Part shown: positions 3,825 to 29,622 of the stretch, in pieces
Position numbering within the stretch: the stretch's first letter is position 1
Layout: every line of letters starts with the position of its first letter
Assembly (NCBI GenBank): GCA_012729015.1
Contig: JAAYDY010000042.1
Coordinates: 77,608-141,607 of the forward strand
From: Phycisphaerae bacterium
GTDB lineage: Bacteria > Planctomycetota > Phycisphaerae > FEN-1346 > JAACEH01
Length of the DNA: 64,000 nt
Direction: 5' to 3'
Program-made: the position numbers and the translations under genes
The notes under the pieces: generated by a model
The model's input: the letters and a program-made list of their open reading frames with translations, nothing else
What the model was told of the DNA's origin: nothing
The model's database searches: none

Positions 3825-3942
3825 GGCTGTTGGCTATTCCCTTTTTCTAGAGTCGTCGGACCCGGCGGCGCCGGGCCGCGTGCGAGGGGCTTCGTCGCAC
3901 GTTCTGGAACTGCCGTCACACGTCACGTCCATGCACGGGCGA

Positions 3943-4434: not shown

Positions 4435-4500
4435 GACACCTCCTTAGCATAGAGCATCTGCGCAGGCAGATGCAGACCGCGTACTATAGCTGCCGGGAAC

Positions 4501-5613: not shown

Positions 5614-5641
5614 GCGTCGCCGCTCCGCGCGCCGCGTGGCG

Positions 5642-6973: not shown

Positions 6974-7008
6974 GGCCTTCGCGCCCGCATCGTTCCTGTC
7001 ATCGGCAA

Positions 7009-7596: not shown

Positions 7597-7604
7597 GAGA
7601 TCGG

Positions 7605-8639: not shown

Positions 8640-8697
8640 GACCCGGCATTATACAGACGGCCTCCGAAAAATGCAACCCCGTCGCAGCCTGCCTCAC

Positions 8698-8797
8698 GGG
8701 GTGCATTGACGTTTTGGGGGCCGTACCGTGGCATGGGCATCCTGCCCATGAGTGGCAGGGGCATCTTGCCCCTGCTTCCCCAAAACGTTAATGCACC
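8698..8797. repeat. MITE/REP-like intergenic element, copy 1 (orientation A)
   Basis: Terminal inverted repeats ggtgcattgacgttttgggg / ccccaaaacgttaatgcacc. Two internal hairpins. Matches copies at 25861, 40865 and 49521. Confidence 0.8.
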
Positions 8798-8912
8798 GTG
8801 CCCCACGCAACAGCTTGACAGGCGGCGGCGGGCCTTCTAGACTCGGCCGGCTCGGCGGAGGAGGCCATGGGGGGCTTCTCCGAGGGCCAGCCGTACCCAG
8901 GAGGCCGTTGTC

Positions 8913-9596
8913 GTGACCGACCAGGACCCATGGCGCAGCCGCACCGAGGACTATACCGCCGAGGAACGCGTGCGGCTGGACAAGTGCGCCGACCTGCTGC
9001 GCAAGGTCCAGTCGGGTCGCCCGGGGCCACTGGAGGTTCTGGACATCGGGTGCGGGTGCGGGGCCATGGGCCAGCTTCTCTCGGGCCCGCAATTCAGGCT
9101 CTCGGGCATCGAGCTGGACAGCCGCTCGGCCGACGAGGCCCGCCGGCACTACGCCGAGGTGGCGGTGCAGGATCTGACGGCCCGGTGGCCGTTTGACGAC
9201 CACCGGTTCGACGCCCTGCTGGCCCTGGCGGTTCTGGAGCACGTGGTGGATTACCGGGCCCTGCTCTGCCAGGCCGCCCGCGTGCTGAAGCCCGGCGGCT
9301 GCCTCATCGTCGAGGTGCCCAACCTCGGCTACTGGAAAGAAGTCCGCAAACTCCTGTTCCGCAAGCAGCCGCACTGGCTCAAGCAGTACGACCACGTACG
9401 CGGCTGGACGCTTGGCTATCTCAAGGTCGCGCTGGCTGAGCACGGGTTCGTGGCGGTCCATGCCGAGTGCGACCGGCTGAATCTGCCGCTGGTGCCGGCG
9501 TCGCGATGGATGGAGCGGCACCTGGCCTCCTGGGGACGCGTGCTCATCGTGCAACTGGTCAAGGCCAACGGGACGCCCACGTCATGCCGCGAGTGA
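8913..9596 (+). CDS. Class I SAM-dependent methyltransferase
   Basis: 227 aa. VLDIGCGCGAMG (motif I) ... LKPGGCLIVEVPN. Confidence 0.75.
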   Translation: MTDQDPWRSRTEDYTAEERVRLDKCADLLRKVQSGRPGPLEVLDIGCGCGAMGQLLSGPQFRLSGIELDSRSADEARRHYAEVAVQDLTARWPFDDHRFDALLALAVLEHVVDYRALLCQAARVLKPGGCLIVEVPNLGYWKEVRKLLFRKQPHWLKQYDHVRGWTLGYLKVALAEHGFVAVHAECDRLNLPLVPASRWMERHLASWGRVLIVQLVKANGTPTSCRE

Positions 9597-10453
9597 CCGT
9601 AGCCATCCCCACCTTCAATCGGCGCGAGCTGCTGCGCGAGGCGCTCGACAGCGTGTTCGCGCAGACGTGGACCGATTTCGAGGTGCTGGTGGTCGATGAC
9701 GGCTCGACCGACGGCACCGGGGAGATGGTTGCCGCGTACGGGCGTCCGGTGCGCTACGTGTACCAGGAGAATCGCGGCGACGCGGCGGCCCGCAACCGGT
9801 TGATCGCCGAGGCGCAATCGCCCCTGATCGCGTGGCTCGACAGCGACGACCGCTGGCTCCCCGAGAAGCTCCAGAGGCAGATCGCCAGGCTGCAGGGGGC
9901 CGACGAGCGGACCGTCGTGTACGGTCCCAAGCTCAGCATCGAAACCGACGGGCGGATCGCACAGAGCCGGCGGCCCGCGCCACCGTCGGGCCGGATCACG
10001 GCGGCGCTGTTCGACAACATCTTCATTCCCACGCCGAGCGTCCTGATACCGACGGCGCTGCTGCGCGAGGCCGGCGGATTCGACGAGCAGTACAGGGTGT
10101 GCAGCGACTACCGGATGTGGCTGGTGCTGTCGCTGACATGCACATTTCTGGCGATCCCGGAGCCGCTGGTGGCCTGCCGGCGGCACGTGGCGAGCCTGTC
10201 CAGCGCATCGTCGGCCAGCCAGGGCGCCAAAGCGACGATGCTCGAGGAGTTTTACTTCGAGCTGGGAGGCAAGGACGCGGTGCCGCGGCGTCAGGCGATG
10301 CGACGGTTGGCCGACCAGTGCCGCAAGACGGCCGTTCTGGCCCATCGCGAGGGGCGTCGCGAGGAAGCGTTCGCGTGGTACCGCAGGTCGCTGGGGCACC
10401 GGCTGACGGCCCGGTCGTGCCTCGGCTATGCAGCCCGGAGGCTGGGTCTGTAG
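9584..10453 (+). CDS. Family 2 glycosyltransferase
   Basis: MPRVTVAIPTFNRRELLREALDSVFAQTWTDFEVLVVDDGSTDGT ... DSDD. The start was chosen at the internal ATG (9584), which overlaps the methyltransferase stop by 13 nt. The ORF-track entry from 9467 is an N-terminal over-extension. Confidence 0.8.
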   Translation: MPRVTVAIPTFNRRELLREALDSVFAQTWTDFEVLVVDDGSTDGTGEMVAAYGRPVRYVYQENRGDAAARNRLIAEAQSPLIAWLDSDDRWLPEKLQRQIARLQGADERTVVYGPKLSIETDGRIAQSRRPAPPSGRITAALFDNIFIPTPSVLIPTALLREAGGFDEQYRVCSDYRMWLVLSLTCTFLAIPEPLVACRRHVASLSSASSASQGAKATMLEEFYFELGGKDAVPRRQAMRRLADQCRKTAVLAHREGRREEAFAWYRRSLGHRLTARSCLGYAARRLGL

Positions 10454-10481
10454 CGGCTGGACGCAGCGAGGCCGGTGCGTC

Positions 10482-12467
10482 CTACGTTCCCCTGCCCAGC
10501 ACAGCGGCCACCGCCTGCGACAGGCGGGCCAGGTCGTAGGGCTTCTCGACGAAACCCGCCACGCCCTCGTCGAGTATCTTCTGTGCGGCTCCGTTCAATC
10601 CGTAGCCGGTCGAGAGCAACGCCAGGACGTTCGGGTTGATCTGCTGCATGGCCTTGAAACACTCGCGCCCCCCCATGGCGGGCATGATCATGTCGAGCAG
10701 CACCACGTCGATGTCGGACCAGGAGTCGCGGTAGATCTCCAGCGCCTCGACGCCGTCGCCGGCCACGAGCACGTCGTATCCGAGTTCGACGAGCATCCTC
10801 GCGGCCATCTGTCGCACCACGGGTTCGTCGTCGATCAGCAGAACGCGGCCCCGTCCGCGAATCACGCGCGGCGCCAGCGCGTGGGCCTGGTCGGACGAAG
10901 GCCGGGCCGTGACCGGCAGGTAGACGCGGAACGTGCTGCCGTGTCCCAGCTCGCTGTAGACCTGCACCGATCCGCCGTGGTTCTTGACGATGCCATAGAC
11001 CATCGACAGGCCCATGCCCGTCCCCTTGGACGGCTCCTTGGTGGTGAAGAACGGCTCGAAGATTCTCGGCAGGATGTCGCGCGGAATGCCGATGCCCGTG
11101 TCCATGACCGACAGGCACAGGTAGCGGCCGGGCGCCGCCTCGGCATGCACACGGCAATACGCTTCGTCCAGATCGACGCACTCGGTGCGGAACATCAACT
11201 GGCCGCCGTCGGGCATCGCGTCTCGGGCGTTGACCGCCAGGTTGAGCACCATCTGCTGCATCTGGCCCGGATCGCCGATGACGGTGCTCGGCGAAGCCTG
11301 GAGCATCGGCTGGATCTCGATGTTCTTGTCGAGGGTGCGACCAAGCAGATCGACGACCTCGCACACAACGCTGTGCAGGTCCACCGGGACAATCTGGTTC
11401 TTGCCTCTGCGGGCAAACCCCAGCAACTGACTGGTCAGGTGGGCGGCACGCCGGGCGGCCCCCTCGATGGAGTCGGCGATCTCGGCCGTCTCGGGGCACT
11501 TGCAGTCGCCCGTCTTCAGCAGGTTGGCGTATCCGATGATGCCCGTGAGCAGGTTGTTGAAGTCGTGAGCGACGCCGCCTGCAAGCTCGCCGATGGCTTC
11601 AAGCTTCTGCACCTGGAACAACTGCTCTTCCAGCCGATGATACTCCTGCTCGCCGCGGATGCGGTCGGTGACGTCGGCGATGAATCCCTCCAGGATGGCG
11701 GCGCCGTCGGCGGCGTCGCCCACTTTCCTGCCCTGTTCGTAGACCCACTTCTCGTCACCCTGGGCGGTGCGGATGCGGTACGTCAGACGAAACGGCTGTT
11801 CCCTGGAGACCCCCTCCTGAACCTGTCGCCACACGTCTTCCGCGTCCTCCGGGTGAACCAGGGCGGCATACGAGACTTCGCGGTTGTCCTGCAACGCCGC
11901 CTGCTCGTATCCGGTGAGCGCCTGGCACCCTTCACTGACATACTCCATGGTCCATTGCCGGTCGTTGCGGCAACGATAGGCCATGCCGGGCAGGTTGCTC
12001 AGCAGCGTCGAGAGCGTCCTCTCGCTCTCGCGCAGCGCTTTCTCGGACTGGCGGCGAGAGGTGACGTCCTGTCCTGTGGCAACCAGGCAGACAATGCGGC
12101 CGTCGCGATCACACAATGCGTTGGCCGACCAGGCGACCAGGCGGGCAACTCCGCCGGTGCCTGCCATCCGAGTCTCGTGAGGGCCGCTGCTGCCTCGCTG
12201 CACAGCCTCGGCCAGGCATGCACGAATTTGCTCCGACTGTGTCTCATCCTGGCCAAAACGCGAGAAGTCGCTTCCAGCGACTGCCTCCGACGAGAGGCCG
12301 CTCCATGCCTCCGAGGCAAGGTTGAAATCGATGATGCGCCCCTGGGGATCCAGCAGGACCACCATCGCCTCAATGGCGTTCAGGATCGTCTGGATCAGGC
12401 GACCGTCCTGGCCGCACCTGACCCACAGTGATTCCAGTTTCTCGACCTGCGGATCGCGATCTGCCAT
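10482..12467 (-). CDS. Hybrid sensor histidine kinase/response regulator with two PAS domains
   Basis: 661 aa. PAS segments, HisKA ([20 protein letters not shown]), HATPase ([18 protein letters not shown]), C-terminal receiver ([10 protein letters not shown]...[11 protein letters not shown]). Confidence 0.85.
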
Positions 12468-12675
12468 AGCAACGCCCCCCCGAAGAGTGCGGCATGGACT
12501 ACGCCCGGCAACGGAGCATGACTACAGATGTGCCCAATCCACCCGTATTATTAGCTCGGCATAGGCAATGGGCAAACTTAATCCGGACTTGCGACACCTT
12601 CATACGACGAGGGCGAAACGGGCCACAAGGCCGGTTCCGCCCCCTGTTCGCGCCATGAAGCCCGTCGGTCGCCTG

Positions 12676-15600
12676 TCAGTGCGTCTCGCCGCCGGGCGAA
12701 TCGCCGGACGGCGGCTCGGTCTCGGCCGACGACGAATCGCCAGCCGTCGCCGGCTCGCTGCCGGACGACGCGTCCCCAGCGGTCGCCGGGACCGCCCGGA
12801 GCACCCTGGGCGCGGTCGTGGCCGCGCGGCGCCAGGCCGCAAACCGCGTGCCGAGGTCTCGCAACAGCTGCCAGACGCCCAGGACGACCGCCACCCCCGC
12901 GAGCAGCCAGATCAGATCCGTCAGATAGTCCGCGAAGCTATAGCCCAACAACGTCCGCACGGCCAGCAACAGTGCCGCCAGACAGAGCATTGCGAGGAAC
13001 TTGCCCACGGCTCCGGTCTTGCTCCTGGTCCACCACCACACGGCGGCCGCCAGCACCAGGACCACCGCGAGGCCGCGCGTCACCGAATGGAGGGCCGATG
13101 TCATGCAAAGCACATTGAGTTCCGGCGGCGTGCCCAGAGCCACCAGCGTCTGGAAGCAATAGCGGTTCATGGCGATGCCGGGAGCCGCGGCCCCAGGGTC
13201 GCGCAGGCGACGTTCGCCTGCCACCGCTTCGATCGGTGGCGCCGCGCTGGGCGCTTGCGACTCCCAGGATCCCACGTTGTCGCCGACACGGCGGTTGTGC
13301 TCCACCTGAATGCTCTGCATGTCGGCCATCTCGGCGGCCGAGCTGCTCAGCACCACCGCACGCTGAGGCGGAACAAACGACAGCCGCACCAGCCCATCGT
13401 CCAGCCGATCCACGCGGTTCAGGGTGCCGCCGTTGTAGACGATCACGTAGTCGTCCGGAAGCGAGAGCTCCCACCCGACGCGAAGGCTCGGCACCTCCGT
13501 CTGCGGCACCATCAGCGATAGGTTGCGCACGCTCCCGAGGGCCGACAGGCTGTAGCTGTAGCGGATGCGGACCTGGAATTCCTGCTGGCCGCGCCCGTGC
13601 CCGATGATGGGGATCATGGTGACGGTGCGACCGTCCTTCTGGCTGGTCACTGGGGTCTTCTGCTCGTCGTCCACGAAGGCGTGCCAGATGCGGGAGTCGG
13701 CGGGCAGGTAGAGTTCCAGATACTGCTTACGGAGGTTTCGCATCGAGTAGGCGGCGTCCGTGACGACGTTGCCGTCGTCGGTGATGACGGTGCTGAGGCG
13801 GCAGGTGCTGATGACGGCTACAAGCACCTCGGCCGGGTCGCGACGCACCGTCGTCAGGTGAAGCTCGAACGGCGCCGTCGGGTACCGGAAGCTCAGGGCC
13901 ATGGAACTGGTGATGCCCTGGGTGTAGTCGGACGGAATCTCGCGTTCGTCGATGGGGCGGACGCCCTTGGACTCCTCGGCGGCGCTGACCTCCAGGTCGG
14001 TCCGCGGCGCGACGGCCACGTAGCCGCGCTCGTGCTTGACGTCCAGCGCCCGGACGCCCACGAAGGTCAGCCGGTCGGCCGTCTTGTCGTCGGTCTTGAT
14101 CTGGTAACTGACGTTGACGCGAACCTGTCCCTTCTTCTTCGCCTGGAACGTCAGCGTCCAGACCGACGGCCTGGCGGGATCCTTCTCCTTGCTCTTGAGG
14201 TCGGCCGCGGTGATGTCCACGTTGTCGGCCCCGGCGGGCAACTCGACCCGCACGGTCTGGATGCCGGCGTACTGCACGAAGTACTTCACCGTGGCCCCGG
14301 CCTGGAGGTACGCCTCGCCGAGGGAGATGAAGTTGAAGACCTCGGCCGTGACATACGGCTCCACGCTCTCGACCTGCACGGCCGTCTTCCACGGCTGGAG
14401 GAAGTACTTGTAAGCCAGTGTGACGCCGCTCTGCTGCAACCGCTGCGGCAGTTCCTTCACGTCGATCTCGCGGATGTTCTCGGTGGCGGCCTCGGACGGC
14501 AGAAGCCTCATGCCTTCCTCGGGGCGGACGGCGACGTAGCCCGTCTCGCGACGGACGTCGAGGCAGCGGATGTTGGGCAGCGCGACGGGCTTGCCGGGCG
14601 CGGCCTCGGTGCGCATCTCGCCGACCATTTTCAGGGCATACGCCCCTTCGGTCTTGCTCAGCAGCACCACTTCGACGGTCCCTGCGGCCCGGTCGTGTTT
14701 CCAGTCGTCGATGCCGGCGCCTTCGAGGGTCAGCACCTGGAAGTCCTGCGGCACGTTGAGCCGCAGGGTGAAGACGCCCGCCTTGCGGATGTCGTAGGTC
14801 ACGGCGTAGTCCACCCGTGTGACGGCGGACTCGATGTCAACGAGGGTCTCGGCAGCGGCGACGATCTCGCTCTGGACCGAACTGATGTCCACCTCGAGCT
14901 GATAGGGATGCCGGATGTAGCGATAGGCCAGCGTGGCGGCCTGACGGTCGGGCATGGTCTCGGGCAGGTCGCGGAGGTTGATCTGCGTGATGCCCTCGCC
15001 GAGGGCCGGCTTGACGTTGGCGCCCGAGAGGGCCTCGATGGCGATGTAGCCGCGCTCGCGCTGCACGTCGAGCAGTTCGAGCCGCGGAATCGCCAGCCGC
15101 TCGCCCTGCATGGGCTTCTCGGTGGTCAATTGCAGAGTGTACTGCCGCTCGGCCTTGCTTCGCAGGTCCACGCTCAGCACCTGGTCGGTCAGGCTCCAGT
15201 TGTTGATGTCGGGGCCGTCGAGGTCGGCCAGCCGCACGTCGGGCCCGAGGCGGATACGGAAGCGGAAGACACCGGCGTCCTTGATCTGGTAGTTGACGGT
15301 CGTGACGGCGCGAACCGACTCGGCGGACACCTTGACCACAGAGAGGACTTCACCGGAGACCTTGGCCTCGACGACGCTGAGCCGCACGACAATGTCGATG
15401 GGGCGCTTGACGTACTTGAAGCCCAGGTGCAGTTGCTCGATCTGGACGCCGGCCGCCACGGCCGGCATCTCGCGCACGTCGATCTGCGACACGCCTTCGG
15501 CGCGGCCGGCCTCGGCCTTCAGCCCCTTGTCGGCCGCGATGGCCACCCATCCCGTCTCGCGGCTGACATCCAGGGCCTCGGGCGTCGCGACAGCCACCTC

Positions 15601-16578
15601 CGTGGCGCCGCCGGCCGACGGCTGGTCGATGGCCTGCTCCGTGGCCAGCGACAGGACGTAACGGTCGCTGATCGGGCCGAGCAGTTCGACCTTGAGCACG
15701 CGGTCGGCCCCCTGCCCCTGGATGTCCCAGGAGCGGATGTCCTGCCCGTCCACCTTCAGCAGCGTGGCCCGCTCGGGCAGACGAAGCCGCAGGACGCTGA
15801 CCTTGCCCTGGACGACGGAATACTCCACCTGCGTGTAGAGCCGCATCACGCCCAGGGCGAGTTGGGCCGTGGTCTTCTGCTCGGCGAAGACCTTGGCCTC
15901 CAGCGTGACGTCCGGGGCCTTGGGCGACCACTCGACGGTGAGTTCGCCGGTCCGGCCGCCGAACACCGTCACAGTCGTCTGCCCCGCCTTCTCCTCGGTC
16001 CGGATCGGCAGTTGCGGCGACAAGGCCACCTCCAGCGACGTACCGGGCAGCGTCACGGCCATGGTGGCCACCGTGGCGCCAATCTGCGGCAGACGCAGAC
16101 TCTTCTTCAGGTCTTTGCCGTCTACTCCCGCGGCAAAGCGGATCTCCAGCTCGTGCGATCCCTTGCCGACGCTGAGCAGGTGGTAGCCGTCGGCCTGCCG
16201 CACCAGTTGCACGCCGTCGCGTCCTTTCTTGATGGCCATGTCGGTCACTGCGATGGACGCCGGCAGCACGAGAACCTCGCGCACGTCCGCGATGTCGCTC
16301 TCGACCCAGAGCCGCATGACGCCTTCGGCCACGGTGCCGGCGACGGTCACCTGCACGTCGCTTCGCGTGAGCACGACATCCGTCACAGGCACCGGCACGG
16401 GCGGCTCGACCGGCGGCACGCGCGAGACCGGCGCCGTCGGGGCGACGGCTTCCTCCGCAAGGACGGTCTCCTGCGTCTGCGGCGCAACCGGATCCTCCTG
16501 GGCCAGCCCCAGTCCAGGCAGGACAGCCACCGCCACCATCGCCACCAGCCACATCACGCCGCGTCTGACGCACCTCAT
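12676..16578 (-). CDS. Giant secreted/membrane-anchored repeat protein (paralog 1)
   Basis: 1300 aa. Signal peptide MRCVRRGVMWLVAMVAVAVLPGLGLAQE. Four internal repeats of about 170 aa, each beginning LDV(S/Q/R/K)RE(T/R)GY(V/I)A(V/I). C-terminal cluster of 3-4 TM helices, then an acidic Ser/Gly-rich tail. GGGAGGA RBS 7 nt before the ATG. Diverse amino-acid usage, unlike the antisense ORFs. Confidence 0.7.
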   Translation of the reverse strand: MRCVRRGVMWLVAMVAVAVLPGLGLAQEDPVAPQTQETVLAEEAVAPTAPVSRVPPVEPPVPVPVTDVVLTRSDVQVTVAGTVAEGVMRLWVESDIADVREVLVLPASIAVTDMAIKKGRDGVQLVRQADGYHLLSVGKGSHELEIRFAAGVDGKDLKKSLRLPQIGATVATMAVTLPGTSLEVALSPQLPIRTEEKAGQTTVTVFGGRTGELTVEWSPKAPDVTLEAKVFAEQKTTAQLALGVMRLYTQVEYSVVQGKVSVLRLRLPERATLLKVDGQDIRSWDIQGQGADRVLKVELLGPISDRYVLSLATEQAIDQPSAGGATEVAVATPEALDVSRETGWVAIAADKGLKAEAGRAEGVSQIDVREMPAVAAGVQIEQLHLGFKYVKRPIDIVVRLSVVEAKVSGEVLSVVKVSAESVRAVTTVNYQIKDAGVFRFRIRLGPDVRLADLDGPDINNWSLTDQVLSVDLRSKAERQYTLQLTTEKPMQGERLAIPRLELLDVQRERGYIAIEALSGANVKPALGEGITQINLRDLPETMPDRQAATLAYRYIRHPYQLEVDISSVQSEIVAAAETLVDIESAVTRVDYAVTYDIRKAGVFTLRLNVPQDFQVLTLEGAGIDDWKHDRAAGTVEVVLLSKTEGAYALKMVGEMRTEAAPGKPVALPNIRCLDVRRETGYVAVRPEEGMRLLPSEAATENIREIDVKELPQRLQQSGVTLAYKYFLQPWKTAVQVESVEPYVTAEVFNFISLGEAYLQAGATVKYFVQYAGIQTVRVELPAGADNVDITAADLKSKEKDPARPSVWTLTFQAKKKGQVRVNVSYQIKTDDKTADRLTFVGVRALDVKHERGYVAVAPRTDLEVSAAEESKGVRPIDEREIPSDYTQGITSSMALSFRYPTAPFELHLTTVRRDPAEVLVAVISTCRLSTVITDDGNVVTDAAYSMRNLRKQYLELYLPADSRIWHAFVDDEQKTPVTSQKDGRTVTMIPIIGHGRGQQEFQVRIRYSYSLSALGSVRNLSLMVPQTEVPSLRVGWELSLPDDYVIVYNGGTLNRVDRLDDGLVRLSFVPPQRAVVLSSSAAEMADMQSIQVEHNRRVGDNVGSWESQAPSAAPPIEAVAGERRLRDPGAAAPGIAMNRYCFQTLVALGTPPELNVLCMTSALHSVTRGLAVVLVLAAAVWWWTRSKTGAVGKFLAMLCLAALLLAVRTLLGYSFADYLTDLIWLLAGVAVVLGVWQLLRDLGTRFAAWRRAATTAPRVLRAVPATAGDASSGSEPATAGDSSSAETEPPSGDSPGGETH

Positions 16579-16626
16579 CGTTCCGTCCTCCCAATCAGCG
16601 TTCCACTGAGACTCGATTCGTATCCT

Positions 16627-19600
16627 CTACCGCGCCGCCGCACGACCACGACGCAACCGCCGGGCCGCGCCGACCGCCGCCGTCCCCACGAGCCCCGCCA
16701 CCGCCACGGCGGCCACGGCGTACACCGCGTAACCGCTGCCGCTGCGAACGGCCTCGATGCGGAAGTGGCCCATATCGCCGCCGCTGAACCCACGGCCGAC
16801 GCGGCTGAACATGTACGGCAGCCGGTCGCCCTGCGGCAATTGCAGCCCGATCGGCAGGCTGCCCCGGGTGCGTCCCTCGCGGACCGGAGACAGCGACACG
16901 GCCTCCACGCCGCCGGCGTCCCACGGACGCCACCCCTCATCGGCGGCAGCCGCCGAGGGCCCGTTGGCCTTGCCATGCGGCACGCCCTCGATCCCGCGAG
17001 CCTCTGACTCCGGCCCGGGCTGATCCGGCTTCGCGGTCGCGACGCCACCCGCCGCGGCAGCCGGCACATCTGTGGCGGCGCCATACCCGACCCCGGACCC
17101 GGTCTTGGTCCCGGCCTCCAGCTTGAAGACGAAACTCGACTGAGGCGTCGTCTGCACTTCCGTCTTCGTGACGCCGGCCGCTTCCTGGGCTTGGCGGAGC
17201 ACGTCGGCCGCCTGCCCCTTGAAGGCCTTGTCCAGATCCTTCTTCTCGTCGGCCCGCGTGATGTCATCCCGCGGCTCCTCCGCCGCGCCTGGCTGGGCCC
17301 CTTCTGGGGCCAGAGGCAGATCCTCGCCGCGCAGGGAGCGGGACGCTCTGCCGGAGTCCCGGTCCGCTTCGTCCCAGCCGTAGAACTTCTCGGCAAGCTT
17401 CATCCGCCGCTGGGCTTCCAGGTTCAGCAGGTTCGAGTCCTGCCGGGCGCGGCTCTTGCCGCCCAGCATCTTTGCCTTCTCGTAGCTCTCGGAGTAGGTT
17501 CTCAGGTCTTCTTCGGTGGGTTTCAGGTCTTCCTCGACGATGGGGTTGTTCACCTCGCCCTGCCGGTAAAGCTCGCGGGCCAGCTGGCGCCGCTGCCCCG
17601 GCTCCACGTGCTGCACCTCGTTTCCCGGTCGCACCACCGTATAGCCGTCAGCGCCCACGTCAGCCAGGAGCACGCCCGTCACGTCCTTCTGCTCCCCGGC
17701 CCTTCCCTGCGGTTGTCGCAGCGCCATGTTGAGGCTCTCGCCGAAGTAGTTGGTGCCCGATTTCTTGAGCCGCTCCACAACGCCCGACTCCACCAGTTTC
17801 TCGCGCTCAAGCTCCGCCAGGTCGGCCGGGTAGACATCAAAGGTGCTTCGGTATGCCTCCAGGGCCGCGCCGACCACCTCCAGGTCGCGTCGCGCCCAGA
17901 CGCCGGTCCAGCCGCCCTCGGCGGCGTCAACCGACACCTCACTGTACTCGACCCGCCCCATCATCGGCGGCGACTTCACCCCCAGCGCCGGCATCAAGAG
18001 CGCCGCGAGAATGAGCATGACCGGAATTGCCGCAAGCATCATGAGGGCTGCCCACCTCAGTCCGGGGCGTTTCCAGACGTAGCGGGCCGCGCGTGCCGGA
18101 GGCGATACCGCGCGGCGCAGCAGCCTGCCGCCGCGACGGACCATCAGCCAGACCGCCGCAGCCGCCACCGCCGTCGCCGCCACGACCGCCAGAACGGTCA
18201 GCACCACGTCCGCCACGGGCTGCACCGACGGCCACACCTGTTCCCATCGCCGGCTGTCGGGGCCGAGCATCTGTCGGCTCACCGGCACGTCGGCATCGGG
18301 CGGGCGGATCACCATCCGCATGTTGCCCTCGTCGCCGACCAGGTCCGGCCGCAGGGCGTACCCCTGCGGCATGAAGACCTCCCATCCCATGCTCCCCGTG
18401 GCGACTTCGACCGGCGGGGTCTGGAAATTCATGTCTACGGCGCGGCCCTCCAGGGGCGGCAGTTGCTCGGCGTAGACCACCGTCAATTCGAACGCCCCGT
18501 CGCGGCGTTCGCGCTGGAGCAGCGGAATCCGGTAGGCCCCGGGGCGGTCGCCTTCGACGGGCTTGACGGGCCGGCCGTCCACATAGGCGGCCCACAGTTG
18601 CCGACGGTCGGGCAACTCGATGGGGGCGAACTGCTGCCGCGTGCTCTGGACCGTCAGCGTCATGAACGTCATGGCGGTGCCGTCGCGGTTGATCATGGTT
18701 TGCAGGAGGCAGTCGCTCGCCTGGAGCTTCAGCACGTCTGCCTCGCCGAGCTGGGCCAACCGCAGCGACAGGCCCCAGTCCTGCGGCGAGAGGCCCGAGT
18801 ACTCGATCGTTCGGACCACCGGAACGTCGGCCGACATGGCCTCGGCCCCGCGTTCCACCGTTCGGGCGTGACCCGACGGCGCGACGGTCACGTCCACCTG
18901 ATCGCTCTGCTTGCCGACGTGGAGGACGCCCTTGTGTCCGGCGGCTTCCAGGACGCGCGGCTCCTCGTGGGTCACGTCCGTGGCCTCGCGGTCCACCAGG
19001 CGGTCGTACGTCACGCGCAGGCGGTACTGGCCCTTGCGGCGCGTCGCCAGCGCGATCGTCCACGTGTTGGAATCGGCGTCCAGGCGGCGGCCGCTGATGT
19101 CCTCGCCCTCGATCCACGAGTTGACGGCCCACGACGGGAGCTTGACGCGCAGGGACGACACCCCGGCTTCCTGAATGGTGCAGATCAGCTGGGTTTCGGC
19201 ACTGATGTCGCCCTGGCCAACCCGGAGCAGCGTCTCGGCCGCAACGGCCACCAGCGGCACGAGGGGTTCCACGTGGAACACTCCGGCCCACGGCTCCGTG
19301 AAATCGTAATGGAGGGCCCGCGACGCCGCGTCGCCGGCGCCTGCGCCGGGCAACGCCGGCGATTGCCGCCGGAATGAGCGGATGGCGGCCTCGGTCGATT
19401 CGCGAAGCGAACGCACTTCGACCACGCTCAGCTTGAGGTCGGACCCGGGCGTCAGCGCCACCTGCCCGCGCGTCCGCAGCGCCACGGGGACGTCAATCGA
19501 CTCGATCCGCAGGGGCCGCGTGTAATCCACCGCCTGGGTGGTCTCGACGATCAGCGAGGTGGTTCCCGTCAGGCCGTCGGTCAGGGTCACCGAAAGGGCG

Positions 19601-21354
19601 GCCTTGTCCTGCCCCGTGGCGGGCGTCAGCCGCCACGCAGCCACTCGCGGCCCGGTGACTCGCAACGGCGTCAGCGACGAAGGCACCAGCAGCACAAGGT
19701 CGAAAATCTGGTCGTCAGCGACAGCCAGATGAATCGTGGTGGCCCGCGTCAGGGCGTCCTGCTCCAGAATCACGAGGTCGTTCATGTCCGCCGTGACGCG
19801 GGCTCGAATCTGTTCGGTCTCGACCGCCAGCGTGCCGCCGCCCTGGCGATAGCGGTAGGCGAGCCTCGCTCCGCCGCGGCGCACCCACTCGGGCAGTTCG
19901 CTGATGTCGATCTGTTCGGTCAACGTGGCGTGGTGGTGGCGCAACTGGACGCCCTCGCCGGCCGAGACGCCGACAACGCCCTCCTGGGAGACCACGTCGG
20001 CCGGTTGCAACCGGGGAATGACCAGTCCGTTGATCTTGCGGACGTCCTGGTGGGTGCGGACGGAGAGCCGGGTCGGCCCGAGGCGCGAGTTGTCGAACCG
20101 CACGCGAAGCTGCCGGTCGTCGCCGACGTCCCAGTCGCGCACGGCATCGCCTGCGACGTCGAGCACCGCGGCGCCGTCGGGCAGGCCGATGACCACGCCG
20201 CGGATGGGGCGCCCCTGGACCTGGTACTCCATGTCGCTGTGCAGAGTAACGACGCCGGCTTCGATCACGGCCAGGCTCTGGACGGCGACTGTGACCCGGG
20301 GCTGACGCAGGCTGCCGCGAAGACGGATGTCCACCGGCAGACGGGAGTAGTCGTAGCTGAGGGCGGCGACGGCATCGCCCTGATTCATGCGCCGCGTGGC
20401 GCCGGTGACGGCGTCCTGCTCAAGTACCATCGCCTCGGCGGCAAGGAATCGCACCTGGCCTTCCTGGACCGCGGCTCCGGCGACGGCCACGGGCACATGG
20501 ACGAAGGCGGTCGGCAGCGGCGGGAGCAGTTCCTCGCTCTGGACCACCAGGACCATTTTGTCCAGCACCCTGGCCGCCAGGCGGACGTCGGCCGTGCGCC
20601 CGTCGCCGGCGACGGCCCACGAGAGGACGTTGCTGCCGGCGATGCTTCGCACGGCCACGCCTTCGGGAATCGCCAGCGAAAGGCGCTCGATGAGGCCGCG
20701 CTGCACGGTGCAGGTGATGACCTCGCGTCTGGAGGCCAGGCCGGGACGGACCTGGACGAGTGCCTTGTTGTGGGCGGAGAACGCGGAGCCGGCCGCCTCG
20801 GCGACGACCGCCCTGTCCCACTGAAGGGCGAAGGCGGGTGTCAGCGGCGCCAGCAGGCTCACGGTCCGAACGCCCTCGGCCACCGCATCGGACGTGACGA
20901 TACCCTCGGGCGAGGTGATCAGGCGGCCCGAATCGCCCGGCAATCGCAGTCGGACTGCCACACGGTTGGCGGGCACACTGGGCAGTTCAATGCGGCTCGT
21001 ACCCGGCGTCGGGGAAAGCCTGCGGGCGAGGAACTTCACGGTCAATCGATAATCGCCCGGCTCGCGGGCGACGAACACGTAGGTGTCGCCCTGGGCAACC
21101 ACGCGGCCGCCGTCGGCCTGCCAGTCGAGCAGCGCCGTGTCGCGCGGCAGCAGCGGCACGACCTGGTCGGCGGCGTGGCAAAAGATGCTGAACCCGGCGG
21201 TCACGTCGCACTGGGCCTGTTCGCCGGCGGCATCGACGGCGTAGTCGGCGGTGGCGATCACCTGCGGTCGGCCCGGCAGGCCGCCCATGGGGATACACGA
21301 ACAGACAGCGGTCAGGCCCAGCAGGGCCGCGGCGAGTCGGACGGGCACTCTCAT
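16627..21354 (-). CDS. Giant secreted/membrane-anchored repeat protein (paralog 2)
   Basis: 1575 aa. Lipoprotein-like N-terminus (LTAVCSC). Repeat modules homologous to paralog 1, for example the pre-TM block LWAAYVDGRPVKPVEG... versus IWHAFVDDEQKTPV... Two TM helices, then a charged coiled-coil-like tail of about 450 aa and a final hydrophobic segment ending RRLRRGRAAAR. GGAGGTG RBS 5 nt before the ATG. 48-nt gap to paralog 1. Confidence 0.7.
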   Translation of the reverse strand: MRVPVRLAAALLGLTAVCSCIPMGGLPGRPQVIATADYAVDAAGEQAQCDVTAGFSIFCHAADQVVPLLPRDTALLDWQADGGRVVAQGDTYVFVAREPGDYRLTVKFLARRLSPTPGTSRIELPSVPANRVAVRLRLPGDSGRLITSPEGIVTSDAVAEGVRTVSLLAPLTPAFALQWDRAVVAEAAGSAFSAHNKALVQVRPGLASRREVITCTVQRGLIERLSLAIPEGVAVRSIAGSNVLSWAVAGDGRTADVRLAARVLDKMVLVVQSEELLPPLPTAFVHVPVAVAGAAVQEGQVRFLAAEAMVLEQDAVTGATRRMNQGDAVAALSYDYSRLPVDIRLRGSLRQPRVTVAVQSLAVIEAGVVTLHSDMEYQVQGRPIRGVVIGLPDGAAVLDVAGDAVRDWDVGDDRQLRVRFDNSRLGPTRLSVRTHQDVRKINGLVIPRLQPADVVSQEGVVGVSAGEGVQLRHHHATLTEQIDISELPEWVRRGGARLAYRYRQGGGTLAVETEQIRARVTADMNDLVILEQDALTRATTIHLAVADDQIFDLVLLVPSSLTPLRVTGPRVAAWRLTPATGQDKAALSVTLTDGLTGTTSLIVETTQAVDYTRPLRIESIDVPVALRTRGQVALTPGSDLKLSVVEVRSLRESTEAAIRSFRRQSPALPGAGAGDAASRALHYDFTEPWAGVFHVEPLVPLVAVAAETLLRVGQGDISAETQLICTIQEAGVSSLRVKLPSWAVNSWIEGEDISGRRLDADSNTWTIALATRRKGQYRLRVTYDRLVDREATDVTHEEPRVLEAAGHKGVLHVGKQSDQVDVTVAPSGHARTVERGAEAMSADVPVVRTIEYSGLSPQDWGLSLRLAQLGEADVLKLQASDCLLQTMINRDGTAMTFMTLTVQSTRQQFAPIELPDRRQLWAAYVDGRPVKPVEGDRPGAYRIPLLQRERRDGAFELTVVYAEQLPPLEGRAVDMNFQTPPVEVATGSMGWEVFMPQGYALRPDLVGDEGNMRMVIRPPDADVPVSRQMLGPDSRRWEQVWPSVQPVADVVLTVLAVVAATAVAAAAVWLMVRRGGRLLRRAVSPPARAARYVWKRPGLRWAALMMLAAIPVMLILAALLMPALGVKSPPMMGRVEYSEVSVDAAEGGWTGVWARRDLEVVGAALEAYRSTFDVYPADLAELEREKLVESGVVERLKKSGTNYFGESLNMALRQPQGRAGEQKDVTGVLLADVGADGYTVVRPGNEVQHVEPGQRRQLARELYRQGEVNNPIVEEDLKPTEEDLRTYSESYEKAKMLGGKSRARQDSNLLNLEAQRRMKLAEKFYGWDEADRDSGRASRSLRGEDLPLAPEGAQPGAAEEPRDDITRADEKKDLDKAFKGQAADVLRQAQEAAGVTKTEVQTTPQSSFVFKLEAGTKTGSGVGYGAATDVPAAAAGGVATAKPDQPGPESEARGIEGVPHGKANGPSAAAADEGWRPWDAGGVEAVSLSPVREGRTRGSLPIGLQLPQGDRLPYMFSRVGRGFSGGDMGHFRIEAVRSGSGYAVYAVAAVAVAGLVGTAAVGAARRLRRGRAAAR

Positions 21355-21381
21355 AACCGCACCTCCATAGATGTGATATTA

Positions 21382-21406
21382 GACGAGGCAGCGGGGAATT
21401 GGTTCC
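21382..21406 (-). promoter_or_regulatory. Candidate ECF-sigma-type promoter for the giant-gene operon
   Basis: Minus strand reads TGGAAC-N16-CGTCTAA, about 30 nt upstream of the ATG at 21354. The GGAGGTG RBS follows. Confidence 0.3.
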
Positions 21407-21420
21407 AGGAATTGCGCCGG

Positions 21421-21449
21421 CACGTGACGGGACGGGTGCACGTCACGTG
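21421..21449. promoter_or_regulatory. Perfect 9-bp inverted repeat CACGTGACG-N11-CGTCACGTG (candidate operator)
   Basis: Seen directly. Lies immediately upstream of the putative -35 of the giant-gene operon. Confidence 0.3.
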
Positions 21450-21828
21450 GTGTGGGTGCGCGGGCTCTCGCACCGCAGAAGCGACGGTGCCATCGTTGGA
21501 GCAACGACAGAACCGGGGCCAAGGCGTGCTTCCCTCTCCGCCCGACCCGATGCTCACTCGGCACACCTTGGTCTCCGGCTTCGCAGGAGCCTCCAAGATG
21601 GCACCCCGCGGCAGCGCACTGCTGGCGACCGTTTTGCGAGGCCATGAAGGGCGGCTCGCCCCTCGACGAGGCTCGGGACTTGCAGCGAGCCGCTCCTACG
21701 GTGAGCGCGGCGGGAGGGGTCAAGGCGTTCGACCCTCACCGCCCCGAGCGGCGCTCGGGGCACCTCTCCCTGCAAGCAGGGCGAGGGGTGCAGGAGCGTG
21801 CTGCGCACGCAGGGTTGACAGAGGAACC

Positions 21829-21948
21829 GCGTGGGTCCGGGGGACCCACCCTACCCGTGTTCCTCGCCAGTCCGCGTGGGTCCGGGGGACCCACCCTACC
21901 CGTGTTCCTCGCCAGTCCGCGTGGGTCCGGGGGACCCACCCTGCCCGC
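21829..21948. repeat. 45-bp direct tandem repeat, about 2.6 copies, each with a GGGTCC-GGG-GGACCC hairpin
   Basis: gtgggtccgggggacccaccctacccgtgttcctcgccagtccgc repeated at 21831, 21876 and 21921. Intergenic, just downstream of the stop of the 21986..23059 gene. Confidence 0.7.
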
Positions 21949-21985
21949 GACCCGCGGTGTTCATGGCCGCCGGCTCTGTGTCGAG

Positions 21986-23059
21986 TCAGTTGACGAACAC
22001 GCCGAGAGCGGCCGCTTGCGTGATCTTCTGGTACCGGGCGTAGGCTCGGGCGGCGCGGTCGCGCAGCGTCGCGGCGCTCTGCCGTTCGGCGAAGGCCTCC
22101 AGCAGAGCGGCCAAGGTGTAGGCCTCGGGAGCCATGAACTGCCTGGTGGCCAGCAGCCGCACGGCGTGGGGGCGCGCCAGGTGCGGGGTGAAGTAGGCGT
22201 CGCTCTTGCAGGCCAGGACGAACCAGCCCACCGGCGGCGAGGCGACCGGACTGTTCACGGCGGCGAAGAGGTTCGTTTCGCGGACGGCTGCATTCATCAG
22301 GCTGTTGTGCCCGACGAACCCGACAACGTGGCCGGCGCCGCCGGCATCGATCGTGCGACCATCGGGCAGGGCGACGGTCCACGCTGCGCTGCCAAGGGCA
22401 TCGGCGGCGAACGCGCCGAGGGCATTTTCCATCGGCATGCCGCGCCAGGCTCGGGCTACAAGCAGCATCTCCACCTGCTGCGCCGCGGGCACGCCGGGCC
22501 ATCGCGAGGCGGCCGGCACACGATGACGGAACACCGCCTGTTCAAGCATCCCATCGGGGTCGCCGTCGCGGCGCTGCGACTCGATCAGGAGTTCCCACGC
22601 GCGGCTCTGTTTGAAGAACGTCTTGAGGCCGAACATCGCGCCCCAGTAGAGGTTCGTTCGCGGCGTGTCGCCGTCGCCGAGCGAGGCCGATACGGGGGCG
22701 ATGCCCTGTCGGTTGTCGCACAGGCAGACGTGAACCGTGACGACGATCGGCCTGCCTGCGCGAACGGCGTCGCCGGCGCGGGCGTAGAGGGTGTCGAGCG
22801 TGGCGGGTTCGCGCCGCGCGGGCGGCGGCGGCGCAGCCTGCGGCCCGGTTGCGGCGCGGGGCCCGCCGGAAGGTCCGTCGACTGACGAAGACGAGCCCTT
22901 GCCCGCGTGAGGATCGTCGATTCTCCCCCTCGCCTCAGGGGCCGGCCGAAACCACAGCAGGTAGCTCCCCCAGCCGGCCACCCCGAGGGCCGTGAGCACC
23001 AACACAAGGGCGAGTCGCGATCTGCCTTGCCTGCGAGGCGCTCGTGCGTCCGTCTGCAT
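21986..23059 (-). CDS. Hypothetical protein with N-terminal membrane anchor
   Basis: 357 aa. GGAGG RBS 9 nt upstream. TM helix LALVLVLTALGVAGWGSYLLWF, then a Pro/Ala-rich linker and a globular domain. No recognised motif. Confidence 0.5.
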   Translation of the reverse strand: MQTDARAPRRQGRSRLALVLVLTALGVAGWGSYLLWFRPAPEARGRIDDPHAGKGSSSSVDGPSGGPRAATGPQAAPPPPARREPATLDTLYARAGDAVRAGRPIVVTVHVCLCDNRQGIAPVSASLGDGDTPRTNLYWGAMFGLKTFFKQSRAWELLIESQRRDGDPDGMLEQAVFRHRVPAASRWPGVPAAQQVEMLLVARAWRGMPMENALGAFAADALGSAAWTVALPDGRTIDAGGAGHVVGFVGHNSLMNAAVRETNLFAAVNSPVASPPVGWFVLACKSDAYFTPHLARPHAVRLLATRQFMAPEAYTLAALLEAFAERQSAATLRDRAARAYARYQKITQAAALGVFVN

Positions 23060-23098
23060 GGTGCCCTGCCTCCATCACCTGATCGGAAAACCGTGGGC

Positions 23099-23890
23099 TC
23101 ACGACGCCATGAGGACGGCGACGGTGTTGAAGGCGGCGTGGGCGGTGGCGGCGGTGGCGAAGCCGCTGCGCAGGTAGACGGCGCCGAGGTAAATGCCCTG
23201 GGCGACGCGGTAAAGAAATTCCAGTTGTGCCCTGGCGGCGTTGCCGCTGCCTGGGGGATGGGCGATGGCGAACACGGCGGCGGCCAGGCAGATGGCGACG
23301 ATCTGGGCGGCGCCGGCGGGGGTGCGGAAGAGTTTCTGCATGAGCAGCAGGACGAGCGAGACCAGGACGAGGCGGAAGAGGAACTCCTCGAAGACCCCTG
23401 CTCCGACGCCGATGACGATTTCGCGGAAACCGCCGCCGCGGCCGACGTCGAACAGGCTGAGAGCGGCGGCCAGCATCTCGGCAAAGGGCAGCGTGAAGAG
23501 CAGGTAGAGGATGACCATCGGGACGGTCCAGAGGAGAGCCTGTCCCCAGAGTCGCCAGAGGTCGGCGGCCCGGAGTTGCCAGGGATCGCGCCGCCAGAGG
23601 TGGATGACCAGCAGGACCGCCAGAACCAGGACACCGGGCAGGAAATGGGCCGTCAGGCCCACGTGGCCGAGCAGTTTGGCGAACCAGGTGTCCAGGAGTG
23701 GCCTGCTGCGGTCGCTGATGCCGACGATGGCGAGGGCGACCTCGTAGAAGAGGATGATCGGGAGCAGGGCTGCCGCCTGGACCAGTGGCGGATAGGAGCC
23801 GGTCATGATCGGGCTGCCGGCGGCACCGGAACCGCCTGTCCCGCCGGAGGATGTCTTCTTGTCTGCCATGACCGGACTGTTTATCATGCC
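23099..23890 (-). CDS. CPBP-family intramembrane metalloprotease (CAAX protease / Abi-like)
   Basis: Multi-TM. Motifs EEFLFR, FAIAH and HAAFN match the CPBP EExxxR / FxxxH / HxxxN triad. The start is uncertain (MINSPV at 23890 or MADKK at 23869). The ORF track extends to 23944. Confidence 0.7.
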   Translation of the reverse strand, partial: GMINSPVMADKKTSSGGTGGSGAAGSPIMTGSYPPLVQAAALLPIILFYEVALAIVGISDRSRPLLDTWFAKLLGHVGLTAHFLPGVLVLAVLLVIHLWRRDPWQLRAADLWRLWGQALLWTVPMVILYLLFTLPFAEMLAAALSLFDVGRGGGFREIVIGVGAGVFEEFLFRLVLVSLVLLLMQKLFRTPAGAAQIVAICLAAAVFAIAHPPGSGNAARAQLEFLYRVAQGIYLGAVYLRSGFATAATAHAAFNTVAVLMAS

Positions 23891-24045
23891 GGTGCAGGAA
23901 AAGCAAGGGACTGCGATCCGACTACGGCTCCGAAGGCGGGGCACCGGTGACCCTCGTCACCAATCCCGCGCGCCAAGGGGGCTAGGATGACGTCGGGATG
24001 GAATCGGGGGGCCGGATTGATGCGCTGGGAGTTGGGGAGCCAATC

Positions 24046-27071: not shown

Positions 27072-28157
<1,086 letters not shown>

Positions 28158-28205
28158 TCATCGACTGCCATGCTTGGCACCACCTGACGCCGGTACGAGC
28201 CGGCA

Positions 28206-29031: not shown

Positions 29032-29074
29032 TGCATTGACTCCTTTGTCTGCACCCTGGCCACTTCGGCGACGG

Positions 29075-29560: not shown

Positions 29561-29622
29561 CTGCTCGTCTCCACAGCCGGCCTCGCCATCCCCCGATGCG
29601 GTGCCACAGAACTACCGTCCGC

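Follow-up and report, generated by a model that had tools for sequence, protein, structure and literature searches.

What do two giant adjacent genes of a Phycisphaerae bacterium (Planctomycetota) encode, and do they form an envelope-sensing trio with the hybrid kinase gene that follows them? The locus lies in a 64,000-nt stretch of DNA (the window; GCA_012729015.1, contig JAAYDY010000042.1, positions 77,608 to 141,607), and we refer to its two large genes as A and B.

16627..21354, minus strand: gene A (ORF), the large paralogue, 1575 aa, with an ectodomain, two transmembrane (TM) helices, a pilin-like module, a linker and a last TM helix
12676..16578, minus strand: gene B (ORF), the small paralogue, 1300 aa
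10482..12467, minus strand: hybrid kinase, PAS-PAS-HisKA-HATPase-REC by Pfam, a neighbour rather than a conserved part of the module

A preliminary description of this DNA had placed A and B as consecutive ORFs separated by 48 nt, which is exactly where we find them. It had also judged artefacts unlikely from strong ribosome-binding sites and ordinary codon usage; GGAGG precedes A and GGGAGG precedes B, and their GC3 (0.87 and 0.90, respectively) is comparable to that of the window's other real genes. Each product has an identical database entry, P0034 for A ('hypothetical protein GXY74_04800, Phycisphaerae bacterium') and P0001 for B ('hypothetical protein GXY74_04795'). BLASTP aligns the two at 25% identity across 1000 aa (E 2e-58), bearing out their proposed paralogy. 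Judged by sequence, A and B are genuine genes for paralogous, predicted envelope proteins.

Both proteins are dominated by an ectodomain of ~1000 aa, differentiated as follows.

18235..21291, minus strand: A ectodomain (aa 22–1040), degenerate beta modules, placed by BLASTP homology to the B ectodomain (E 2e-58) and by module HMM matches at aa 329–414, 453–581, 627–787 and 862–962
15574..16500, minus strand: B N-terminal part (aa 27–335), a disordered Pro-rich stretch and then beta-sandwich domains including a half-module (AF2 secondary structure, pLDDT, module HMM)
15073..15573, minus strand: B module 1 (aa 336–502), starting LDVSRETGWVAI
14563..15072, minus strand: B module 2 (aa 503–672), starting LDVQRERGYIAI
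14047..14562, minus strand: B module 3 (aa 673–844), starting LDVRRETGYVAV
13399..14046, minus strand: B module 4 and terminal beta domain (aa 845–1060), starting LDVKHERGYVAV

Repeats of ~170 aa opening on LDVxRExGY(V/I)A(V/I) had been ascribed to both paralogues. B fits this precisely, with exact motifs at aa 336, 503, 673 and 845 (spacing 167–172 aa), pairwise module matches of E down to 2e-21 and a half-module located at aa 226–317 by the module HMM. A fits it in part: its modules are still recognizable (E 1e-15 to 5e-12), with a degenerate version of the motif. Across the family, module 4 and the terminal beta domain of B hold the most invariant or near-invariant columns of the ectodomain. 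The AF2 model of B aa 28–1160 is an all-beta chain of modules (pLDDT 81.8) whose pTM of 0.36 makes the arrangement between domains unreliable. Foldseek matched this model to the OST1 subunit in seven OST structures (E 1e-8 to 1e-6, probability 1.00) and to the M1 aminopeptidase N-domain and ITIH1 (probability 1.00); these fold matches cover one or two modules and carry no function. As modelled, the ectodomains of A and B are tandem arrays of ~170-aa beta modules with the fold of ribophorin I/OST1, the M1 N-domain and VIT.

Ribophorin I/OST1, subunit 1 of the eukaryotic oligosaccharyltransferase, resembles an A/B-type protein in its tandem beta domains and C-terminal TM helix; there is no sequence similarity, and PF04597 (Ribophorin_I) matches neither A nor B. 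Where OST1 has two modules, the B-type protein has four to six; it also has three TM helices and a conserved paralogous partner, and its host is a bacterium. A convergent GT2 and a methyltransferase are all that the scanned neighbours offer, and no catalytic partner of the STT3/PglB type is among them. Similarity to M1 aminopeptidases/LTA4H is confined to the fold of their non-catalytic N-terminal beta domain; in A/B this domain is found in tandem and membrane-anchored, and Pfam detects no Peptidase_M1 catalytic domain. The modules also share the fold of the VIT domain (ITIH heavy chains, bacterial VIT-VWA proteins), yet the VIT profiles PF08487 and PF13757 do not match A or B and, unlike in VIT-VWA proteins, no VWA domain is present in the same chain or window.

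Beta-rich exported proteins of this size might also act as protease traps or in aerotolerance, in the manner of alpha-2-macroglobulin or BatD. BatD/Bat operon proteins are likewise exported, beta-rich and anchored in the membrane at the C terminus, and VWA and TPR proteins are found in association with relatives of A/B. A and B are, however, much larger than BatD, form a paralogue pair and have no MoxR, DUF58, BatA or BatB neighbours; PF13584 (BatD) has no match in either at E ≤ 1 and only a sub-threshold one (0.034) in a distant member, P0075. A regular-expression search found no CxEQ thioester in A or B, as had been noted before, there is no A2M match in Pfam, and Foldseek probabilities for A2M/TEP are only 0.15–0.44, the best fold matches being of a different domain type. 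This reading is largely refuted and we regard it as extremely improbable. Neither profile nor fold revealed MG, A2M or TED domains. AsmA/TamB was rejected as well, with no AsmA, TamB or DUF490 profile match and no N-terminal anchor or beta-taco groove. A clear match to alpha-2-macroglobulin, BatD or AsmA/TamB had been named as grounds for abandoning the idea of a new system; Pfam and Foldseek gave none that was confident.

Membrane segments were assigned from hydropathy, and topology from hydropathy and charge alone.

21292..21354, minus strand: A signal peptide (aa 1–21, ending LTAVCSC), with a possible but non-canonical lipobox (hydropathy)
18151..18207, minus strand: A TM1 (aa 1050–1068), followed by an Arg-rich loop of net charge +10 (hydropathy, charge)
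17575..18048, minus strand: A TM2 and pseudopilin-like head (~aa 1103–1260), an alpha1 helix of pilin type that stays uncleaved, and a degenerate GspG/H-X9-DG-like domain (profile search, AF2)
16903..17574, minus strand: A charged low-complexity linker (~aa 1261–1484), predicted periplasmic from the TM2–TM3 charge, mostly of pLDDT <50 and poorly conserved
16630..16902, minus strand: A conserved pre-TM block, TM3 (aa 1543–1561) and basic tail, GRTRGSLPIGLQLP...LPYMFSR (tblastn, hydropathy)
16501..16578, minus strand: B signal peptide (aa 1–26), ending GLGLA with QE following (sequence, hydropathy)
12862..13095, minus strand: B three-TM cluster (~aa 1162–1239; hydropathy)
12679..12861, minus strand: B predicted cytoplasmic tail (aa 1240–1300), Ser/Pro/acidic (sequence, odd TM count)

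A and B are each predicted to be exported via their signal peptide, and C-terminal TM helices to hold both in the cytoplasmic membrane. The lipobox Cys of A is not kept in the L002 and L003 orthologues. A cluster of TM helices with a charged cytoplasmic tail, attributed earlier to both proteins, applies to B, whose three TM helices form such a cluster; since this number is odd and the ectodomain external, the tail is predicted to be cytoplasmic, and it is short (61 aa) and the only one so predicted. It does not apply to A, where TM1 (1050–1068), TM2 (1103–1121) and TM3 (1543–1561) form no single cluster. Net charge in A is +10 for the TM1–TM2 loop, −11 for the TM2–TM3 stretch (aa 1122–1542, ~420 aa) and +6 for the C-terminal tail. 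The pilin-like TM2 puts its head in the periplasm; together with this charge distribution, it makes the charged TM2–TM3 stretch probably periplasmic and not cytoplasmic. The pre-TM block, TM3 and tail are the part of the C-terminal half still matched by tblastn in the distant orthologues L003 and L009–L012.

The membrane anchor bears on whether A/B could instead be cell-surface adhesins or S-layer-like structural proteins outside the cell. A long beta-sandwich array would suit such a role, and Foldseek matches include integrin-leg and mastigoneme-like arrays, but C-terminal alpha-helical TM segments are typical of the cytoplasmic membrane, and no outer-membrane, sortase, T9SS or autotransporter signal and no adhesin domain was found, leaving this placement very unlikely. 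The Pfam scan of A and B yielded no significant match, consistent with the earlier failure to recognize a catalytic or known adhesin motif.

The second TM helix of A opens a segment with pilin homology. A profile of this segment from ten A-type proteins matches GspG (5wda, E 5.8e-7) and geopilin, PilE1 and PilA (1e-5 to 1e-6), identifying a hydrophobic alpha1 helix with Pro22 in A aa 1103–1260. Pfam assigns SBP_bac_10/DUF1559 to six of the ten A-type segments and T2SSG to five; TIGR04294 passes its cut-off in the A orthologue P0043 (23.6 bits vs 19). JGI annotation has H-X9-DG protein for P0037 and P0042 and PulG for P0164, and 'NVLYNDGHVEW' is found in P0037–P0042. The AF2 model of the A segment has a long helix and three strands (pLDDT 76–89). 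Both the Glu5 and Pro22 positions of pilins are kept in P0043, which alone keeps Glu5. The window's copy, KRPGLRWAALMML, has neither Glu5 nor a prepilin-peptidase site (G before F/M), its head is degenerate and A itself has no NCBIfam match; Foldseek with the low-confidence model of the A C terminus also gave no match. Likeness to GspG-type pseudopilins and DUF1559/H-X9-DG proteins lies in alpha1 and the next helix (by profile) and in the DUF1559, T2SSG and TIGR04294 signatures of orthologues. Unlike those proteins, the segment lies within a chain of 1575 aa, with another TM helix ahead of it and ~300 further residues plus a TM helix behind, and in A the peptidase site is absent and the H-X9-DG motif degenerate.

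These signatures, the annotations and the residues retained in P0043 would fit an accessory of a pilus or of type II secretion, in which the helix of A is built into, or docks on, a pseudopilus or type IV pilus platform and tethers a large beta-rich structure. The absence of the processing site and Glu5 from the window's A speaks against this, as do the lack of the module in B and in the large paralogue of L006 and the absence of T2SS or T4P genes among the scanned window ORFs; we consider it unlikely.

Searches returned 11,172 family representatives (50% identity) at E ≤ 1e-3 and 4,397 at E ≤ 1e-30, hosted by Planctomycetota and Verrucomicrobiota, so that the A/B family, as delineated by sequence, is very large and not rare. 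All nine orthologous loci that include upstream DNA have A ahead of B. Among the best 150 family matches, 67 are at least 1796 aa long, and the long forms contain two full ectodomain copies with an even number of TM helices between them. Every family locus examined has at least two ~1000-aa ectodomain copies, as adjacent genes or as one 2100–2700-aa fusion; in L006, L015, L016 and the P0029 contig, a single-copy gene adjoins a double-copy gene. This pairing is conserved, and A and B therefore very probably work together. Neither has a significant Pfam, NCBIfam, PADLOC or PDB-sequence match (the few found are chance, sub-threshold hits with E ≥ 0.04), the PADLOC anti-phage defence models also miss the upstream 357-aa protein, and we found no curated model of the family and no paper on it. 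The suggestion that this is not a described system stands in these resources.

We favour, at roughly even odds, the reading that a 'double-ectodomain' envelope protein is split here into two subunits, A and B, which form an inner-membrane-anchored periplasmic scaffold and belong to a large Planctomycetota/Verrucomicrobiota family. The conserved adjacency and the fused relatives suggest that the two ectodomains would be neighbours in the periplasm, paired as a heterodimer or, in fused forms, as a pseudo-dimer. Their joint role may be that of an elongated scaffold or binding platform without enzymatic activity, with the pilin-like module of A as a membrane anchor that possibly docks to pseudopilin or T2SS/T4P-like components.

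Regulatory genes accompany many distant members. An ECF sigma factor gene lies directly upstream of a family member in five of eight distant contexts; in three of these (L004, L014, L017) a VWA/YfbK_C protein, occupying the anti-sigma position, is encoded between the two, and this place is taken by a single-TM or small protein in L005 and on the P0029 contig. VIT and VWA domains co-occur in ITIH proteins, and the modules are VIT-like in fold. VWA-type anti-sigma factors could accordingly have the pair as their periplasmic partner or ligand, in an envelope-stress or surface-signalling circuit whose ECF part was lost in this clade. Against this, the link is one of gene order only, and no ECF sigma factor or VWA gene adjoins A/B in the window or in nine orthologous loci; it seems to us distinctly unlikely.

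Does the kinase beside A/B fill a comparable role? Its gene starts 208 nt downstream of B on the same strand, and ORF and Pfam analyses agree with the hybrid PAS-HK-REC gene described earlier. Two elements lie between.

12608..12646, minus strand: GC-rich hairpin ~30 nt past the B stop, without a U-tract, a possible terminator or RNA end (fold of 12590–12680: −45.3 kcal/mol, z −2.45)
12547..12575, minus strand: promoter-like site preceding the kinase gene, TTGCCC-17-AATAAT (consensus match only)

A trio in which A/B are the extracytoplasmic sensing arm and the PAS-HisKA-HATPase-REC kinase the output, for example through contact with the B tail, would account for this proximity and for its retention in L001 and L007, the closest two relatives, whose B proteins share 77% and 88% identity with that of the window. 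With ECF sigma factors linked to its distant members, the family seems connected with signalling. But the kinase is missing from the available DNA downstream of B in seven other orthologous loci (L002, L003, L008, L010, L011, L012 and L013), its PAS begins at residue 24, leaving no room for a membrane anchor, and no TM segment is present. The strong hairpin and the sole promoter-like site of its kind in 10300–23200 separate it from B, and its ribosome-binding site is weaker. The proposed trio does not hold up as a unit: on gene-order evidence the kinase is not part of the conserved A/B module, and we rate the sensing-arm arrangement as quite improbable.

For the split scaffold that we favour, expression or signalling may be tied to lineage-specific envelope regulators, which in many distant members would be an ECF sigma factor with a VWA protein in the anti-sigma position; in the narrow clade of the window, the neighbouring cytoplasmic PAS hybrid kinase may play this part. 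A more far-reaching proposal, which we offer as a long shot, is that A and B represent the divided version of a machine that works in the periplasm of Planctomycetota and Verrucomicrobiota alike. Exported or glycosylated envelope proteins would find a receptor or holdase scaffold in its ribophorin-I-like modules, and the machine would be physically linked to components of pseudopilin type and report to ECF sigma/VWA anti-sigma circuits. Such a machine could be an evolutionary relative of the eukaryotic OST1/VIT domains.

Two giant genes, A and B, and the PAS hybrid sensor kinase gene after B lie on the minus strand. The genes concerned, placed by ORF list and translation for A, B and the kinase, are as follows:

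10482-12467, minus strand: kinase gene, 661 aa
12676-16578, minus strand: gene B, the smaller paralogue, 1,300 aa
16627-21354, minus strand: gene A, the larger paralogue, 1,575 aa
21986-23059, minus strand: 357-aa protein with an N-terminal membrane anchor, directly upstream of A
23099-23944: CAAX/Rce1-like protease, preceding the 357-aa gene

A and B are separated by 48 nt, and B and the kinase gene by 208 nt. A and B have third-position GC values of 0.87 and 0.90, similar to the other coding ORFs of the window (GC 65–70%), and ribosome-binding sites (GGAGG for A, GGGAGG for B) stand 7–8 nt ahead of the start codons. The proteins give a single collinear BLASTP alignment over 1,000 residues (25% identity, E 2e-58), so the ORFs, spacing and paralogy of the preliminary description are borne out. 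Long antisense ORFs over the pair (for example 13597-17007 and 19729-21993, plus strand) fall outside the coding-like GC3 set and were therefore treated as high-GC artefacts. The repeats of ~170 aa are likewise real in B: the motif [LIVM]D[VIL]x[RHK]ExG[YW][VI]A[VI] recurs at residues 336, 503, 673 and 845, its four modules match one another (E 3e-07 to 2e-21), and a half-module occupies 226–317. Four to five weaker copies are detected in A using B's module profile. The kinase is PAS-PAS-HisKA-HATPase_c-REC by Pfam.

Neither A nor B has a match better than chance in Pfam, NCBIfam, PADLOC or the sequences of all PDB chains, and Pfam finds nothing in five diverse family members. We modelled the B ectodomain (the exported part of ~1,000 aa; residues 28–1160) using 23 aligned family members. 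The result is all beta, with a mean pLDDT of 81.8 and 964 of 1,133 residues at 70 or above; its pTM of 0.36 makes relative domain placement unreliable. Foldseek matches it to OST1 from seven OST complexes (E 1.4e-8 to 1.4e-6, probability 1.00) across 410–510 alignment columns, spanning several modules, and to the M1 N-domain and ITIH1 (probability 1.00 each). Because of these matches, each ~170-aa module is assigned, on the model, as a ribophorin-I/M1-N/VIT-type beta domain. B follows the plan of OST1 (ribophorin I) on a larger scale, with a signal peptide, tandem beta domains and a C-terminal TM helix, but its resemblance to OST1, the M1 N-domain and VIT is at the fold level only, no sequence profile connecting them. 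For A2M and TEP the Foldseek probability is 0.15–0.44. Alpha-2-macroglobulin, BatD and AsmA/TamB, named beforehand as families whose detection would refute the preliminary description, are not found by sequence in A or B and gain no support from structure searches; the CxEQ thioester motif, previously reported missing, is indeed absent from both proteins. We regard an A2M- or BatD-like identity as extremely improbable.

Hydropathy gives B a signal peptide, three TM helices at ~1162–1239 and a 61-aa tail. For A it predicts a signal peptide and helices at 1050–1068 (TM1), 1103–1121 (TM2) and 1543–1561 (TM3). A cluster of helices followed by a charged cytoplasmic tail had been described; the charged stretch exists, but the three helices of A are separate and the stretch is predicted to be periplasmic. 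This follows from the positive-inside rule, the TM1–TM2 loop carrying a net charge of +10 and the last 14 residues +6, against −11 for the 420-residue stretch from TM2 to TM3. That these exported, membrane-anchored proteins serve as surface adhesins seems to us very unlikely.

After TM2, orthologues of A share the consensus LLPA-(x)-NL-Q-G-A--Y----G-YP-S---L ... NVLYNDGHVEW, a sequence signature characteristic of both GspG-type pseudopilins and planctomycetal DUF1559/H-X9-DG proteins. A profile of this segment from ten A-type proteins finds GspG (5wda, E 5.8e-7) in the PDB, as well as geopilin, PilE1 and PilA. Of the ten segments, six match Pfam SBP_bac_10 and five T2SSG, and TIGR04294 exceeds its cut-off in one A orthologue (P0043). 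JGI names point the same way: family proteins P0037 and P0042 are each a 'prepilin-type processing-associated H-X9-DG protein', and P0164 is 'pseudopilin PulG'. The likeness to GspG/DUF1559 is limited to this one segment. A G|F cleavage site is lacking, the pilin Glu5 is kept in P0043 only among those compared, and the head in the window's A is degenerate, reading GYTVVRPGNEVQHV, with nothing detected by NCBIfam. That A and B are accessories of a pilus or T2SS, a reading that draws on this segment, is unlikely. An AF2 model of A's second half has a pLDDT of 57 overall and is confident (76–89) at ~1149–1329, a long helix and three strands; Foldseek returned no match for this weak C-terminal model. 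The last conserved element of A is a block, GRTRGSLPIGLQLP...LPYMFSR, directly ahead of TM3. In the relative's locus L002, the A-type orthologue (3849-9212) has gained a BatC-like TPR region at aa ~1450–1540 (NF047507, E 1.2e-9) and, in the C-terminal part on the periplasmic side, a second GspG/H-X9-DG-like repeat.

Word-indexed searches found just 33 and 41 relatives, all 'hypothetical' bar two with H-X9-DG labels and nearly all without Pfam domains. With a trimmed alignment (A2), an exhaustive profile search recovered 11,172 cluster representatives (E <= 1e-3), of which 4,397 reach E <= 1e-30; a closer alignment (A6) was used for the genome scan. Where a source is named, members come from Phycisphaerae and Planctomycetota MAGs, one Brocadiaceae-labelled MAG and Rariglobus (Verrucomicrobiota); two 'Anaerolineaceae' MAGs that also carry members are probably mis-binned. 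Family lengths are bimodal, at about 1,100–1,400 aa and about 2,100–2,700 aa, and 67 of the best 150 matches are at least 1,796 aa long. Proteins of the long class hold two complete ectodomain copies of ~1,000 aa, joined by an even number of TM helices, which places both on the same side of the membrane. At least two copies, fused or split, are present at every locus examined, as A–B pairs, fused double copies or a single-copy member beside a double-copy neighbour.

In each of the nine orthologous loci with upstream DNA (L001, L002, L003, L007, L009, L010, L011, L012 and L013), the B-type gene has an A-type gene directly upstream; B identity across these loci runs from 88% down to 30%. At L002 the two are separated by an inserted gene (9214-9999), whose 261-aa product has three TM helices and matches nothing in Pfam. 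Apart from the pair, no neighbour is conserved around these loci. Only in the two closest relatives, L001 and L007, is B followed by the PAS kinase, and no kinase was found in the downstream DNA of L002, L003, L008, L010, L011, L012 or L013. In the window, the interval between B and the kinase gene contains a hairpin (12608-12646; −45 kcal/mol, z −2.45) and the sole sigma-70-like site of the 13-kb region. The proposal that A, B and the kinase form one module, founded on their adjacency, is thus not supported, and we consider such a trio quite unlikely.

Among more distant family members, an ECF sigma factor is encoded immediately upstream in five of eight. Three of these have a large VWA/YfbK_C protein between the sigma gene and the member, one with a weak zf-HC2 match; the remaining two have a single-TM or small protein in that place. 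A single-copy member adjoins a double-copy member in four of the eight contexts. A search upstream of A in the window found no ECF sigma or anti-sigma factor; the family-less 357-aa membrane protein and then the CAAX protease are found there. A role for A and B as partners of VWA anti-sigma factors, suggested by the distant loci, is unlikely. The 357-aa protein has no Pfam or PADLOC match, and tblastn located neither it nor the protease in the fetched loci L001–L013. The ~630-nt gap between its gene and A contains a near-perfect 45-nt tandem repeat (21827-21947; 2.7 copies, 98% matches), which may be a regulatory or recombination-prone element. At L004, a fused double-ectodomain member sits after an ECF sigma factor and a zf-HC2/VWA/YfbK_C protein, and directly downstream of it is a DUF4140/DUF4139 protein (16534-18297) with no solved relative by sequence; hhalign detected no relation between this neighbour and the family profile (probability 1.3%).

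Elsewhere in the window, a methyltransferase and a GT2 glycosyltransferase (8913-10453, plus strand) converge on the kinase gene, with no evidence of a relation to A or B. In a 344-aa protein (7605-8639, minus strand), TPR repeats are fused to a pair of RNA-polymerase alpha C-terminal domains (PF03118, E 1.6e-39, in two stretches), which is unusual for an alpha-CTD. A housekeeping block (564-7596, minus strand) encodes a SecDF fusion (1,086 aa), YajC, tRNA-guanine transglycosylase, a SpoIID-domain protein and QueH. A chemotaxis cluster (27072-33975, minus strand) comprises CheA (913 aa), CheW, CheD, a CheY-like receiver, CheX and CheB, and is followed on the plus strand by HDOD and FapA-like genes.

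A and B are two exported, membrane-anchored paralogues composed of ribophorin-I/VIT/M1-N-type modules; ectodomain duplication is obligatory at each locus examined, and a pilin-type helix lies inside A. We propose that the two ectodomains associate in the periplasm, giving a heterodimer here and a pseudo-dimer where relatives are fused. Together they would build a long scaffold or binding platform that is non-catalytic and held in the cytoplasmic membrane. The pilin-like module of A would be an anchor and may touch pseudopilin or T2SS/T4P-type components. Regulation would be lineage-specific: many relatives would rely on an ECF sigma factor together with a VWA protein placed as an anti-sigma factor would be, and the narrow clade of the window may use the adjacent cytoplasmic kinase. 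To paralogue architecture, paired periplasmic scaffold, anchor and lineage-specific regulation as a whole we give about an even chance, the weight lying mostly on the architecture.

Family-level sequence membership tests all failed but for the pilin-helix profile match, and the nearest known things, OST1/ribophorin I, the M1 N-domain and VIT, with GspG/DUF1559 for one segment of A, are near at the fold or module level only. Since, in addition, no curated model covers the family and no solved relative or paper was found in the resources and literature searched, we class A/B as an undescribed family and gene module and not a variant of a named one, in keeping with the general idea of an undescribed envelope module. 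'New' here denotes absence from the searched resources, not a demonstrated new mechanism, and the module fold itself is known.

Planctomycetota and Verrucomicrobiota have unusual, poorly understood envelopes and many giant unannotated genes, and giant unannotated envelope proteins are in themselves no surprise there. This family is now concrete: its sequence clusters number more than 11,000, its fold is modelled and its topology predicted, the loci follow a rule of two or more ectodomain copies each, and regulatory neighbours recur. These data could serve as the basis of a curated family model, and 'hypothetical proteins' become testable hypotheses: that a heterodimer forms, that the proteins lie in the periplasm, and that they are linked to pseudopilins and ECF sigma/VWA circuits.
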